DNA of 63,202 nucleotides from Candidatus Zixiibacteriota bacterium (GTDB taxonomy: Bacteria; Zixibacteria; MSB-5A5; RBG-16-43-9). How positions within the stretch are numbered: the first letter of the stretch is position 1; every line of letters begins with the position of its first letter. The translations under genes were made by a program, and so were the position numbers. The stretch is taken from positions 1 through 63,202 of the forward strand of contig JAUYBY010000078.1 in NCBI GenBank assembly GCA_030692925.1, in the 5' to 3' direction. The notes below the pieces were generated by a model. That model was not told the origin of the DNA and did no database searches. It saw nothing but the letters and a program-made list of their open reading frames with translations. Below, piece by piece: positions 6,432-11,048 of the stretch.

Positions 6432-7058
6432 ATGAGTCACACATTTTATAATTTGATCTACTCTGAGGATTTGCCAGACAGTTATTTTGCGGAATGGTCG
6501 CATGAAGATATTGAATTAGAAGGTATAAAATGTACAATTGATGAGGGGCATCAAAGGGCAGGTAGACGACTTAGCGACTTAACTGTAATTCTAAGGACAC
6601 CCAAGGTATTGGAGTTTGATTTCATTTGGACATGGATGAGCGAACCTCTTATTAATGAAAGGGTAATTAAGATTTTTAAAGAAAATAAACTCACGGGATA
6701 TAGTTTACGTCCGGTAACAATTAAAAGAATTAAAAGATTTAAAGGCAATCTTTCTACTATCCCTAAATTTTGGGAGCTTGTGATAACAGGCAAGGGCGGA
6801 TATGCACATCCTAACTCTGGCATAAAGTTAAAAGATGAATGCAAGGCTTGTGGGTCAAAAACATATTCTGCATATGAGCATGGAATAATAGTAGATGAGA
6901 AAAACTGGGATGGGTCTGATTTTTTTAGAATAATAGAATGGCCAAGAATTCTTGTCATCGAAAAAGTCAAACAGATAATAGAAAACTATAAGATAACAAA
7001 TGTTGAACTGATCCCTTCCCAAGACCTCAAATGGCCAGAGGGTGTAATAAAACCTTAG
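6432..7058 (+). CDS. putative polymorphic-toxin immunity protein (DUF1629/Imm11-like, CXXCG motif)
   Basis: LINERVIKIF..ENKLTG, CKACG, WDGSDFFR, ILVIEKVKQII..ITNVEL motifs; visibly AT-rich. Confidence 0.6.
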   Translation: MSHTFYNLIYSEDLPDSYFAEWSHEDIELEGIKCTIDEGHQRAGRRLSDLTVILRTPKVLEFDFIWTWMSEPLINERVIKIFKENKLTGYSLRPVTIKRIKRFKGNLSTIPKFWELVITGKGGYAHPNSGIKLKDECKACGSKTYSAYEHGIIVDEKNWDGSDFFRIIEWPRILVIEKVKQIIENYKITNVELIPSQDLKWPEGVIKP

Positions 7059-7303: not shown

Positions 7304-7798
7304 TTATTTCCTCAAACTCTTCTTCAGATGTTCGATCAGCCCCCCATCCTCCAGTATCCCCATTACTATTTCAGGCAGTGGAGGAAAAGGAATCTTCGTG
7401 TTTTGAGTTACGATCTCGCCTTTGACGTAGTCAACAGTTATGATTTCTCCTTCTTTAAGCAGATCATAAGCCTCTTTAGATTGAACTAAAGCCAGCCCCT
7501 GATTGATGGCATTCCTGAAAAAAATCCTGGAAAAAGATTTAGCAATTACACAGGATATCCCTGCAAATTTCAAAGAGGTTGCTGCCTGCTCTCTGGAAGA
7601 CCCGCAGCCAAAATTCGAGCCACCCAGGATGATGTCTCCTTTCTGAATCTTATCAGGGAAATCTTTATCATAACCTTCTAAAGCATGTTTAGCCATCTCC
7701 TGAGGATCAAGGATCGGAAGACACTTTCCCGGATAGATGACATCTGTATCGATGTTATCCCCTAATTTCCAGACCCTTCCTTTAATCTCTTTTAACAT
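7304..7798 (-). CDS. leuD: 3-isopropylmalate dehydratase/homoaconitase small subunit
   Basis: DNIDTDVIYPG, NFGCGSSREQA, SFSRIFFRNAIN, GGL motifs. Confidence 0.9.
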   Translation of the reverse strand: MLKEIKGRVWKLGDNIDTDVIYPGKCLPILDPQEMAKHALEGYDKDFPDKIQKGDIILGGSNFGCGSSREQAATSLKFAGISCVIAKSFSRIFFRNAINQGLALVQSKEAYDLLKEGEIITVDYVKGEIVTQNTKIPFPPLPEIVMGILEDGGLIEHLKKSLRK

Positions 7799-7810: not shown

Positions 7811-9409
7811 TCACTTTTTAAGAAAATCCCTTGGGTCCGAGATCTCGCCTCTGATGGCTGTGGCGGCTGCAGTAGCCGGGCTTGCTAAGTAGACCTCAGA
7901 TTCAGGCGAGCCCATCCTTCCTTTGAAATTCCGGTTAGTTGTGGCCAGGCACCTCTCCCCTTTTGCCAGTAACCCCTCATGTGCGCCCAAACAGGGACCG
8001 CATCCCGGGTTCAGCACCACGCAATTTGCTTCCAGAAATGTTTTGATCATTCCTCTTTTCAATGCTTCTAAGTAGATAGATTTTGAGCCAGGCAGAACCA
8101 GCATTCTGGTATCCGGGTGAACTTTTTTCCCTTTGAGCAGACGGGCAGCAATCTCCAGGTCATCTATCCTTCCATTTGTGCAGGAACCTAATAAAACCTG
8201 ATCTATCTTTATCCCTTTGACTTCATCAATCGACTTAACGTTATCCACGTTATGCGGGCAGGCAACCTGTGGCTCTAACCGGCTGATATTATATTCGTAT
8301 TCATTCTCATAGATGGCATTTTCATCCGCATATATAGGTTGATAGCTCCTCTTAGCTCTACCTTTAAGATATTTTTTTGTTACGTTATCAAAAGGAACGA
8401 TAGCGAATTTCCCTCCCATCTCCATAGAAAGGTTAGCCAGTGTGAACCTTTCAGAGATGGACATATTCTCAACCGTATCCCCGTAGAACTCAACTGATTT
8501 ATAATTTGCTCCTTCAACTGTCAACTCTCCGATTATATAAAGGATTGCATCTTTGGCATATACCCCAAGAGGAAGTCTGCCATTAATAGTCAGTTTCAAG
8601 CTTTCAGGAACCCTTAGCCAGATTTTGCCAGTGGCCCAGACTGCTGCCATTTCAGTGGCACCTATTCCGGTTGACAGGGCACCCAAACAGCCGTATGAGG
8701 TGGTGTGTGAATCTGTTCCAACTGCTAACTCTCCTGGAAGGATATGTCCTTTTTCTATCACTACCTGATGGCAGACCCCCTCCTTTATGTCATAGAAATT
8801 TTTTATTCCTTGTTCTTTGACAAATAGCCTGATCGAGCGGTGGGCTTCTGCTGTTCTCTCAGACTCGGCTGGTGCACGGTGGTCTAAAGGTATGACTATC
8901 TTATCCGGGTTCCATACTTTGGTGACACCTATCTCCCTGAACTGCTTTATCACCAGACCAGCATTATCGTGGCTCATAGCCAGGTCCGGCTCAACGTAGA
9001 CAATTTCCCCTACCTGAACTCCACTCTTTCCTATTTTTAGAGCCAGCCCTTTCTGCGCAATGGTGAGTCCCCTGTTTTTCCCCCTGCCAGCTCCGGGAAG
9101 CGTGAACTCAAGCTGAGCCAATTTCAGAACTTTAGGCTTCTCTAAGAGATTATATTTCCTTCTCCATTTGTAAAAAGCCGCCTTGGAGATGGAAAGCTCA
9201 TTCCCGGCTTTCCGGTCATCCCCATAAGTTTCCCAGAGCTCTTTTACCCTTTCAAAACTGTATTTAGGAAGGGAGTGCTTGGGTATTTTCTTTTTCCTTC
9301 TCCAGTAGGCTACCAGATAAGCTGGAACCCCTAAGACCTGTCCGATCTTCTTGTCAGTTTTATACTGAGCCTGAAGTTTTAAAAGCTCTTCTTTCTTCGG
9401 AATTCTCAT
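7811..9409 (-). CDS. leuC: 3-isopropylmalate dehydratase/homoaconitase large subunit with ~110-aa N-terminal tandem HTH-like extension
   Basis: DH, GVCHQ, GTDSHT, GSCTNGR, PGCGPCLG, NRNFKGRMG motifs; extra N-terminal domain with two WRRK-ending repeats; substrate not established. Confidence 0.85.
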   Translation of the reverse strand: MRIPKKEELLKLQAQYKTDKKIGQVLGVPAYLVAYWRRKKKIPKHSLPKYSFERVKELWETYGDDRKAGNELSISKAAFYKWRRKYNLLEKPKVLKLAQLEFTLPGAGRGKNRGLTIAQKGLALKIGKSGVQVGEIVYVEPDLAMSHDNAGLVIKQFREIGVTKVWNPDKIVIPLDHRAPAESERTAEAHRSIRLFVKEQGIKNFYDIKEGVCHQVVIEKGHILPGELAVGTDSHTTSYGCLGALSTGIGATEMAAVWATGKIWLRVPESLKLTINGRLPLGVYAKDAILYIIGELTVEGANYKSVEFYGDTVENMSISERFTLANLSMEMGGKFAIVPFDNVTKKYLKGRAKRSYQPIYADENAIYENEYEYNISRLEPQVACPHNVDNVKSIDEVKGIKIDQVLLGSCTNGRIDDLEIAARLLKGKKVHPDTRMLVLPGSKSIYLEALKRGMIKTFLEANCVVLNPGCGPCLGAHEGLLAKGERCLATTNRNFKGRMGSPESEVYLASPATAAATAIRGEISDPRDFLKK

Positions 9410-9413
9410 CTGG

Positions 9414-9920
9414 TTATTTATTCCTGGACATCTGGAAGAGGAGCTTGTCCAGACCTCTTTTGAGTTTTACGAAGATCTCATCCATCCCTATGGAAACCAC
9501 TTTGGTCTTTGCCAGAATCGGCATGAAGTTGGTGTCTCCATTCCAACGGGGAACTACGTGAATATGCAGGTGACTTGCTACACCCGCACCTGAGACCCTG
9601 CCTAAATTCAATCCTAAGTTCAGTCCCTGCGGTTTTAAGGCGGATTTAAGGGTCTTAATGGCAAGCTGCGTAGTCTTCATCAGGTCCTTCAGCTCAGATT
9701 CGTTGAGGTTTTCAAGTTTTCCCGTATGTCGGTTGGTGCAGACCATCAGATGCCCGGGATTATAGGGAAAGCGGTTCATAATCACAAAAGACTTTTCCCC
9801 CCGGAAAAGGATAAGATTCTTCCTGTCCTTGTTCTCCTTCAGCCTTTTACAGAAAATGCAACCCTTTTCTTTTTTACTTGAGATGAATTTACTTCGCCAG
9901 GGCGCCCAGAGTTTTTCCAT
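9414..9920 (-). CDS. HIT-family hydrolase (Ap4A hydrolase/phosphorylase-like)
   Basis: LWAPWR, CIFC, NRFPYNPGHLMV, HLHIHVVPRWNGDTNFM. Confidence 0.92.
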   Translation of the reverse strand: MEKLWAPWRSKFISSKKEKGCIFCKRLKENKDRKNLILFRGEKSFVIMNRFPYNPGHLMVCTNRHTGKLENLNESELKDLMKTTQLAIKTLKSALKPQGLNLGLNLGRVSGAGVASHLHIHVVPRWNGDTNFMPILAKTKVVSIGMDEIFVKLKRGLDKLLFQMSRNK

Positions 9921-10069
9921 AATATAAAAGGAATTTAGACCTTCAAAATTTAGACTAATATACTATGCCGGAAATCAGATTTCAAGATTTTTTGTAGAAA
10001 TTTTGGGACAAAGGAAAATATTTATATGGGAATGTAGGGGTAATTCAGGAATTACCCCTATAACTATTA

Positions 10070-10137
10070 GTCATTGCGAGGAGGTCCTTTGACCGACGAA
10101 GCCCAGATGGGCTTCGTCCAGATGGACTCGCAATGAC
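10070..10137. repeat. GTCATTGCGAG...CTCGCAATGAC long inverted-repeat element
   Basis: terminal inverted repeats; other copies at 63078-63165 and a half copy at ~23216-23257. Confidence 0.8.
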
Positions 10138-10384
10138 AGCATCATGATTATTATGAAAAAACGCAAGAGCGAGCTTTTGCACTCCAAACCCGGGTGGCAC
10201 CCTCAAACTTGTTTGAGGGTGATGCAGTCGCGGATTTTCCCTACTGTTCCTTACTTTTCCATTTTTGCTTTTCCGTCTTACATCTCCCATCTTACGTCTT
10301 CTTTCTTCCATTTTCTATTTTATGGACAAGCATCTTCACCTCTGCCAATCGCTGAATAAACACCTCTCTTTGGAAAAAAAATAT

Positions 10385-10412
10385 TTGACAACGCGGGAAA
10401 AAGGTATAAATT
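10385..10412 (+). promoter_or_regulatory. putative sigma70 promoter of the HNH-trpS...rpsA operon
   Basis: TTGACA-N16-TAAATT. Confidence 0.5.
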
Positions 10413-10535
10413 AAACAAAATGCAGGTGAAGCTCTCACGTAGCGGAGGTTTTAGACCTCCGCCTTGCTGGAGTCGCGTAGCAGTCCGCCTCAGGCGGATC
10501 AAACCTCTGCTGGTGAGGAGTGATGTTTACAAGGT

Positions 10536-11048
10536 ATGAGTAGACTTTCAGGAAACGTATTGGTCTTAAATCAAAATTACGAGCCTCTTTCGGTTTGTAG
10601 CGTAAAAAGGGCAGTGATTATGCTTTTTTTGGGTAAGGCTGAGCTGATTGAGAAAAACGATGGCGAGACTATCCGCTCGGTCAGGCTGTGTATACCCCTC
10701 CCCAGCGTGGTTCGACTGGGATTCTATATCAAAGTCCCGCCCAAAAGGGTTCTGCTTTCCAGAAAGAACATCATCAAACGGGATGGACACCGCTGTCAAT
10801 ATTGCAGTGCTACTCATCTACCTATGACTGTGGACCACGTCATCCCTAAGCTCTATGGAGGTAAGGACTCCTGGGAGAACTTAGTCTGTGCCTGCATCAA
10901 ATGTAATAACATCAAGGGGAACCAAACTCCGGAACAGGCGGGCTTAAAGCTATTAAAAAAGCTGCGCACTCCTAATCATATAACCTTTCTCCAGCGATTT
11001 GTGGGGATCTCAGATGATCGCTGGAAACAGTATCTTTTTCTGGAATAG
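10536..11048 (+). CDS. HNH endonuclease (McrA-like, short chromosomal type)
   Basis: VLVLNQNYEPL, RDGHRCQYC, TVDHVIP..GG.DSWENLVCAC..CN..KG. Confidence 0.92.
   Translation: MSRLSGNVLVLNQNYEPLSVCSVKRAVIMLFLGKAELIEKNDGETIRSVRLCIPLPSVVRLGFYIKVPPKRVLLSRKNIIKRDGHRCQYCSATHLPMTVDHVIPKLYGGKDSWENLVCACIKCNNIKGNQTPEQAGLKLLKKLRTPNHITFLQRFVGISDDRWKQYLFLE

Follow-up and report, generated by a model that had tools for sequence, protein, structure and literature searches.

An aconitase-family protein with a predicted N-terminal double helix-turn-helix module, conserved across Zixibacteria while its enzyme half decays

Introduction

Enzymes fused to DNA-binding domains, and aconitases with a second, RNA-binding role, are both known already. 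PutA, BirA, and NadR are enzyme–repressor fusions or trigger enzymes, and the aconitase superfamily includes iron regulatory proteins (IRPs) and moonlighting aconitases whose second role is nucleic-acid binding; among these are IRP1 and the non-catalytic IRP2. In the IRPs and the bacterial apo-aconitases, it is the opened cleft of a four-domain enzyme that binds RNA. Here we describe a gene of a Candidatus Zixiibacteriota bacterium (GenBank assembly GCA_030692925.1, contig JAUYBY010000078.1, positions 1–63,202; this whole stretch of 63,202 nucleotides is called the window) that joins a predicted double helix-turn-helix (HTH) module to the large-subunit domain of a LeuC/HacA-type aconitase-family enzyme. 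The part of the literature open to our full-text search held nothing on an HTH-tagged aconitase-family protein, and within that partial view the architecture is undescribed. The gene and its parts are as follows, with residue numbers of the window protein.

7811..9409, minus strand: fusion gene, consisting of double HTH module, linker, and LeuC/HacA-type aconitase-family large-subunit domain; 532 amino acids (aa), ATG start
9293..9394, minus strand: HTH unit 1 (residues 6–39), AlphaFold2 helices 6–15, 19–26, and 30–39, the third ending in near-invariant ...YWRRKK
9155..9256, minus strand: HTH unit 2 (residues 52–85), AlphaFold2 helices 52–62, 65–71, and 76–85
9107..9142, minus strand: short conserved segment after HTH unit 2 (residues 90–101, EKP..LK..QLE), a helix predicted with low confidence
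9065..9106, minus strand: variable, disordered linker (residues 102–115), differing in length and sequence across the alignment
7811..9064, minus strand: aconitase-family catalytic domain (residues 116–532, stop included) with three [4Fe-4S] cysteines (410, 470, and 473) and the catalytic motifs

Over residues 112–528, the window protein is like the large subunits of the Methanocaldococcus jannaschii isopropylmalate/citramalate isomerase (4nqy, 4kp1) and homoaconitase (4kp2) from end to end, sharing their Fe–S cysteines and motifs, and the two-gene arrangement of large and small subunits is also shared, the adjacent LeuD-like protein aligning with 3vba (E 1.3e-48) among the M. jannaschii-type small subunits (3vba, 2pkp). 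It differs from these enzymes, which start at the catalytic domain, in its 115 additional N-terminal residues. The substrate loop of its small subunit (PGKCLPILDP) is unlike those of the solved isopropylmalate isomerase and homoaconitase small subunits (RYLVYT, PYLRTT), and most orthologs of the fusion protein appear to be enzymes no longer.

As in PutA, BirA, and NadR, a small DNA-binding domain, here a predicted one, lies N-terminal to a metabolic enzyme in a single polypeptide, and the window protein plausibly combines catalysis with nucleic-acid binding. Unlike them, it has an aconitase-family fold and a bipartite HTH_23-like module, and it belongs to a family in which the enzyme half has decayed in most members while the predicted binding half persists. 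The eroded orthologs resemble IRP2 in appearing non-catalytic. Unlike in the IRPs and apo-aconitases, the binding surface would be the added HTH module, the enzyme is a three-domain LeuC-type protein whose small subunit is separate, and decay has apparently occurred repeatedly within one bacterial phylum.

Spread and authenticity of the fusion

The fusion gene is a near-universal, single-copy gene of this uncultured phylum. We found the N-terminal domain (N-domain) in 148 of the 151 genomes sampled from the window's phylum (records named Zixibacteria), the three genomes without a match being 95–96% complete. Each genome has one match, the window's own included, except for one that also has a small fragment. 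A word-indexed search with residues 1–115 returned 340 proteins at E ≤ 0.01; among the 120 matches listed, all carry PF00330 and are 397–555 aa long, and the source names given are Zixibacteria, Zixiibacteriota, or GN15, plus one Acidobacteriota label. Of the 148 matches in the genome sample, 141 belong to open frames 484–685 aa long. The seven short frames comprise five at contig ends, one with an in-frame TAA at codon 269, and one with a frameshift near residue 305, the last two both falling inside the C-terminal domain (C-domain) and not at the domain boundary. These two interrupted orthologs (L121 in genome G077 and L123 in genome G144, respectively) have eroded C-domains, and may reflect assembly errors or real inactivation.

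We fetched 80 orthologous loci of ~10 kb from 18 family-level groups; ortholog counts out of 81 given below are these plus the window. The fused frame is present in 80 of 80 fetched loci (481–593 aa), one of them (L101) being cut by a contig end. An earlier note on this DNA had allowed that the N-terminal region might be a separate gene joined on by a sequencing error, in which case orthologs would be split, and had proposed a survey of taxonomic spread. The survey returned the near-universal distribution above, and no ortholog is split at the domain boundary. Had a sequencing or assembly error attached a small HTH gene to leuC, or had a wrong start been chosen, the enzyme would begin near residue 97–116, and there is indeed an in-frame TTG at about residue 97. 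However, no in-frame ATG or GTG occurs near residue 115, and the fused frame recurs in all of the independently assembled loci. The N-terminal part is also under purifying selection, with a ratio of nonsynonymous to synonymous substitution rates (dN/dS) of 0.016–0.09, and ortholog N-termini align from their first residues, with starts that abut or overlap the stop codon of the upstream HIT-family gene. The chance of an assembly artifact or a wrong start is negligible and we consider it ruled out; neither coincidence nor misassembly comes near to explaining the fusion. An origin as a mobile-element remnant was rejected, the gene being single-copy and syntenic.

A separate scan covered 185,579 species genomes, from which 80 loci were kept. 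Fifteen of these match from residue 1, and are titled Zixibacteria or Zixiibacteriota (nine), "uncultured Ignavibacteria" (four), Terriglobales (one), and "uncultured bacterium" (one). Among the full-fusion records, those titled Terriglobales or "uncultured Ignavibacteria" (L127, L130, L132, L136, and L141) carry submitter labels that disagree with the grouping of the contigs in the window's phylum, to which several of the 15 contigs are assigned. The matches of the other kept loci begin at residues 75–132 and represent unfused enzymes of 40–59% identity from WOR-3, Thermoplasmata, methanogens, Asgard archaea, Synergistaceae, and others. One record, L140 ("MAG: bacterium isolate BS750m-G18"), has an unfused LeuC/HacA-type gene of 414 aa that is 72% identical to the window C-domain, against at most 59% for other unfused genes; it has no N-terminal module, and no same-strand open reading frame (ORF) of at least 60 aa lies in the 500 nucleotides (nt) upstream. 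L140 could be a pre-fusion form or a secondary loss.

Decay of the enzyme half

We scored the orthologs at 15 positions, the three cysteine ligands and residues of the SHD, DH, CHQ, DSH, CTN, and NR..GR motifs, which are the Fe–S and catalytic sites of aconitases, located here through the alignment with 4nqy. Only 16 of the 81 orthologs retain the full set of 15, and the other 65 keep 0–11. The intact set consists of 15 members from the window's own order (families f1–f3, window included) and one genome of family f17, and families f6, f8, f16, and f18 keep 0–2 of the 15 throughout. The two halves of the protein have fared differently outside the intact set. Median pairwise identities for the N-domain and the C-domain, respectively, are 71% and 77% among intact orthologs, and 62% and 24% among 64 eroded orthologs (L101 left out). 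Positions conserved in at least 90% of these 64 sequences number 33 in the first 100 residues versus 13 in the 417-residue C-domain. The Pfam Aconitase score falls to 18–150 bits in 10 eroded orthologs, compared with 339 in the window protein, and two of the 10 are below the cut-off.

The eroded C-domains are nevertheless not pseudogenes, because their frames are open and dN/dS, calculated only for pairs with unsaturated dS, indicates purifying selection (C-domain 0.07–0.20, N-domain 0.016–0.09). Intact orthologs have values of 0.03–0.08 in both domains, with 0.03–0.05 for the C-domain of the window protein. Within the eroded families, the 15 former active-site positions have 14–40% pairwise identity versus 41–55% for the rest of the C-domain. 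These positions are thus the least conserved part of the eroded C-domain, and no conserved ligand pocket has taken the place of the active site. Judged by the missing residues, the C-domain cannot be an enzyme in most orthologs. The HTH part is conserved while the enzyme part decays, which points to selection for a function other than catalysis.

A quick maximum-likelihood tree, rooted on the two other LeuC-like paralogs of the window's genome, recovers the fusion family as one clade (Shimodaira–Hasegawa-like approximate likelihood ratio test 99), with intact members on short branches, eroded clades on long ones, and an unresolved backbone. The well-supported branches by themselves require the eroded state to have changed three times or more. 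Repeated loss of enzyme function is the probable direction of change, given that both the outgroups and the closest unfused genes encode intact enzymes. One orthologous family thus presents a natural series, from intact enzymes with a partner subunit through partly eroded to fully eroded forms, with the added module almost invariant throughout, and it offers a testable model for a moonlighting function taking over a protein.

The N-terminal module

The NCBIfam profiles PRK00402, hacA_fam, and IPMI_arch begin, at profile position 1–2, at residue 116 of the fusion protein, and the 4nqy alignment begins at residue 112. The extension ahead of the catalytic domain is accordingly ~115 residues long, close to the estimate of about 110 in the earlier note. 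Its two halves are alike (BLASTP 11/33 identities, E 7e-05 in a single comparison), and AlphaFold2, using a 91-row alignment, predicts two three-helix bundles with a predicted local distance difference test (pLDDT) score of ~90, in keeping with the two similar, HTH-patterned repeats that had been proposed. In the 91 sequences, L32, V33, Y35, W36, R37, K39, and K40 of unit 1 and W59, G63, D65, G69, F79, Y80, W82, and R83 of unit 2 are invariant. The segment that follows (residues 90–101) has P92, L95, and Q99 invariant and E90, K91, K96, L100, and E101 at least 90% conserved; a full-length model (mean pLDDT 88.7) places a helix at 94–100 with pLDDT ~50, and residues 96–111, ahead of the enzyme domain, have pLDDT < 50. 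Residues 1–101 contain 26 lysines or arginines and have a net charge of +15, compared with +2 for the 417-residue C-domain.

A phmmer search with residues 1–115 against 1.84 billion representatives returned 200 proteins at E ≤ 1e-3, with E down to 1e-27. Besides orthologs, the matches are proteins with 2–9 tandem copies of the ~45-aa HTH unit of the N-domain, and 10 of the 10 scanned exceed the Pfam HTH_23 cut-off (E 2e-60 to 6e-13), most by a wide margin. In the N-domain itself, sub-threshold Pfam matches to HTH_23 and HTH_Tnp_1 map to unit 2. A feature search of the ESM Atlas with residues 1–105 returned HTH_23-type clusters throughout, with scores of at most 0.85, which serve as leads only. 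The predicted fold, the sequence links to HTH_23 repeat proteins, and the net charge of +15 together support the N-terminal part as a tandem HTH-like module.

Structural comparison places the model weakly next to tandem homeodomains, DUX4, Mos1, Tc3, and IstA by Foldseek, and next to a phage repressor, Reb1, FapR, Mos1, SETMAR, TyrR, Fis, Myb, and GcrA by VIA-align; the top neighbors, all weak matches, are DNA-bound tri-helical or bipartite HTH domains. As modeled, the module shares two three-helix units, a short linker, and a basic third helix with the bipartite HTHs of Tc1/mariner and IS-type transposases and with tandem homeodomains (Tc3 1u78, Mos1 3hos/5hoo, DUX4, 6m3d), a similarity too weak for membership. 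Unlike Tc1/mariner and IS-type transposases, the fusion has no transposase catalytic domain and is a single-copy, syntenic, phylum-conserved gene that is not mobile.

Several of the phmmer matches, including P0144, P0145, P0151, P0152, P0155, P0161, and P0190, are proteins of 200–1700 aa made up almost wholly of 2–9 or more tandem HTH_23-like units of ~45 aa, with the rough consensus ..L.KLQ..Y.TD..IG..LGVS...V..WR.K.GIP. Two short matches, P0150 (106 aa) and P0121 (144 aa), could be either pieces cut off by short contigs or genuine stand-alone N-domains. One ortholog (P0115) is annotated with PF28406 besides PF00330, and the PF28406 entry may already describe the N-terminal module.

The enzyme domain of the window protein

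The C-domain of the window protein matches Pfam PF00330 Aconitase with 338.8 bits (cut-off 28.7) and, over residues 116–527/528, the NCBIfam models PRK00402 (586.8 bits, cut-off 385), hacA_fam (560.6, 385.7), and IPMI_arch (543.9, 410.15). The closest solved chain is the large subunit of the M. jannaschii isopropylmalate/citramalate isomerase (4nqy, also 4kp1; E 5e-139). Aligned with 4nqy, C410, C470, C473, and the 12 further key positions are all present (15/15), with the motifs DH, CHQ, DSH, and NRNF..GR, so that the three Fe–S cysteines and catalytic motifs are intact, as first read from the sequence. The name LeuC given at that time holds at the level of the aconitase/isopropylmalate dehydratase large-subunit family, but not more narrowly. 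The protein falls below the LeuC equivalog cut-offs (TIGR02083 LEU2 505.3 bits against 610.65; TIGR00170 leuC 248.8 against 560.25) and also below those for methanogen-type homoaconitase (NF040615 HacA_Meth 490.7 against 550; the small-subunit model HacB2_Meth 183.1 against 230). The loop of the small subunit sets substrate specificity in this family, and the loop here is the unusual one given above.

Unlike in the setting of the M. jannaschii-type enzymes, no HMGL-like synthase (PF00682; LeuA, CimA, or homocitrate-synthase type) was found in the 91%-complete genome to which the window belongs. One of the 21 genomes of the window's order has an HMGL-like gene, though each carries LeuCD-type genes; the same search was positive in 14 of 14 control genomes. 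The missed equivalog cut-offs, the unusual small-subunit loop, and the failure to find an HMGL-like synthase make a role in leucine synthesis unlikely, and the LeuC/LeuD annotations in the window's order probably do not denote leucine biosynthesis. This bears on public records, in which many fusion genes are labeled "3-isopropylmalate dehydratase large subunit". Most of the genes so labeled, to go by their lost residues, cannot be enzymes, and the intact ones are in genomes almost all without a detected isopropylmalate synthase; metabolic reconstructions of Zixibacteria that count the fusion gene as LeuC are probably wrong.

The earlier note had also asked whether there is a second leuCD. The genome has three LeuC-like genes, two of them additional to the fusion, three LeuD-like genes, and two Iso_dh genes. 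One further LeuC-like/LeuD-like pair (L001, contig C89, 957–5162) lies between citrate synthase and Iso_dh-family dehydrogenase genes. We found no AcnA/AcnB-type aconitase in the genome, its only PF00330 loci being these three, and because of this the L001 pair may serve as the aconitase of a citrate synthase/aconitase/isocitrate dehydrogenase branch.

Genes adjacent to the fusion

Three features flank the fusion gene in the window.

9414..9920, minus strand: HIT-family gene, 168 aa, Pfam HIT 1e-16, directly upstream of the fusion gene
7304..7798, minus strand: LeuD-like small-subunit gene, 164 aa, LEUD_arch 201 bits (cut-off 109)
9957..9985, minus strand: promoter-like site upstream of the HIT gene, TTGAAA, 17 nt, TATATT, from a consensus scan only, which is not evidence of function

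The stop codon of the HIT gene is 4 nt from the fusion ATG, and the LeuD-like gene starts 12 nt past the fusion stop codon. The gene therefore sits, as the earlier note put it, with leuD and a HIT hydrolase and not in a leu operon, the LeuD-like gene being downstream and the HIT gene upstream on the same strand. The promoter-like site is the putative start of a HIT/fusion/leuD-like operon.

The link to the HIT gene is invariant: all 81 loci have this gene directly upstream of the fusion and in the same orientation. The HIT stop codon is within 22 nt of the fusion start or overlaps it in 68 loci, 45 of which overlap, and the HxHxHxxPR motif of the HIT protein is intact in every locus. The top NCBIfam match of the window HIT protein is ATP adenylyltransferase, at 146 bits and below the cut-off of 290. 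The LeuD-like gene follows the state of the enzyme, being downstream in 16 of 16 catalytically intact orthologs versus 8 of 65 others; seven of the 57 non-intact loci without it have less than 1.5 kb of downstream sequence. Apart from the HIT and LeuD-like genes, no conserved neighbor was found in the ~10-kb loci.

Proposed function and alternative explanations

We lean, by a little better than even, toward the view that the basic double HTH module binds nucleic acid, most likely DNA, that the aconitase body is an ex-enzyme now serving mostly as a scaffold, and that the window protein is a retained bifunctional state. The function preserved across the phylum would be seated in the HTH module and would most likely be sequence-specific DNA binding, the module acting as a transcriptional regulator or another chromosome-bound factor. 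It would consist of two homeodomain-like (HTH_23-type) units spanning ~100 residues, joined by a flexible linker of ~15 residues to the aconitase-fold domain, which would provide its body or oligomerization scaffold. The window lineage would keep the ancestral state, with all Fe–S ligands and catalytic residues and an adjacent LeuD-like partner. The window protein is probably both an active [4Fe-4S] hydro-lyase and a nucleic-acid binder, and hence a bifunctional protein resembling a trigger enzyme; its substrate would be a 2-hydroxy-tricarboxylate or dicarboxylate outside leucine synthesis. The fusion gene would share an operon with the gene of a catalytically intact HIT nucleotide hydrolase/transferase, and translation of the two would often be coupled.

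Several results weigh against a DNA-binding factor. We found no conserved operator upstream of the HIT gene in the 81 loci, either from k-mers (k = 7–10) in the 250-nt stretch before the HIT start, compared with control stretches, or from 12-mers taken from four source loci and matched to the remaining loci with up to two mismatches. The words that recur are all AT-rich and promoter-like and reach 14 loci at most; an operator may lie elsewhere in the genome. Recognition helices that are near-invariant across a phylum are unusual for an ordinary transcription factor, and a conserved target of protein or RNA would explain them just as well. The N-domain alone scores below the Pfam cut-offs for HTH_23 (17.0 bits against 24.6) and HTH_Tnp_1 (16.9 against 24.1), so that it is best described as apparently related to, and working like, the HTH_23 type and not as a curated Pfam member. 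Of the modeling and Foldseek comparison that the earlier note had proposed, the first part gave two confident three-helix bundles, but Foldseek against the Protein Data Bank returned no match at E ≤ 0.001 (best E 0.08). The VIA-align matches have Z of 6.3–4.8 and a root-mean-square deviation of ~2 Å over 40–45 residues, a Z range common for small helical domains. Nucleic-acid binding by the N-domain is thus a reading of its sequence and predicted fold.

If the HTH shape is only ancestry, the N-terminal module could be a protein-binding or localization tag that tethers the aconitase body to the HIT enzyme, RNA polymerase, or another machine. The near-invariant helices fit a conserved protein surface as well as DNA, the short conserved helix at 90–101 resembles a docking motif, and the HIT gene is linked in every locus, often overlapping the fusion start, with no operator found upstream of it. 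However, the strongly basic charge of the module, its HTH_23 sequence relatives, and its DNA-bound HTH structural neighbors speak against such a tag, and no partner was identified; we consider it unlikely. Binding of RNA instead of DNA, with a conserved mRNA leader, rRNA, or tRNA as target and a post-transcriptional role like that of the apo-aconitases, seems less probable again. It would suit the basic charge, the phylum-wide invariance, which points to a highly conserved target, the failure to detect an operator ahead of the operon, and the known RNA binding of aconitase-family proteins. It sits poorly with the relationship of the module to DNA-binding HTH families, with the known aconitase/IRP case, which uses the four-domain cleft and not an added HTH, and with an Rfam scan of the whole window at gathering thresholds, which gave no match.

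The earlier note had proposed an enzyme–regulator in which substrate or [4Fe-4S] status is coupled to DNA binding. Such a switch is possible for the catalytically intact lineage of the window and plausible for the 16 intact orthologs generally, with precedent in the enzyme–repressor fusions and in IRP1. Taken family-wide, the proposal is contradicted by the 65 of 81 orthologs that lack some or all of the cluster ligands and catalytic residues and by a former active site that evolves faster than the rest of the C-domain, leaving no conserved ligand site, while the HTH module is still under strong constraint in the eroded orthologs. Gating of DNA binding by cluster or substrate occupancy throughout the family is therefore highly improbable. 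Cross-talk between the halves may nonetheless figure in a broader and more tentative proposal that extends the DNA-binding reading, and which we consider doubtful as a whole. A phylum-defining nucleic-acid-binding factor would have been born as an HTH-tagged LeuC/HacA-type Fe–S enzyme and several times independently converted to a non-catalytic "pseudo-aconitase" scaffold; the window lineage would be a bifunctional intermediate, with cluster or substrate state gating HTH binding and the HIT protein in the same circuit.

Other features near the locus

The remaining neighbors of the fusion are housekeeping genes, encoding an RlmD-like methyltransferase, an SbcC-like ATPase, a DUF885 protein, an LpxH-like phosphoesterase, and Rho. 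A 615-nt gap at 9921–10535, between the HIT gene and a divergent HNH-endonuclease gene (10536–11048), has short ORFs only, without an Rfam match, and carries the promoter-like site. Between the LeuD-like gene and the LpxH-like phosphoesterase gene, a 208-aa ORF at 6432–7058 on the plus strand has sub-threshold Pfam matches to Imm43 (E 0.011) and Gmx_para_CXXCG (E 0.07).

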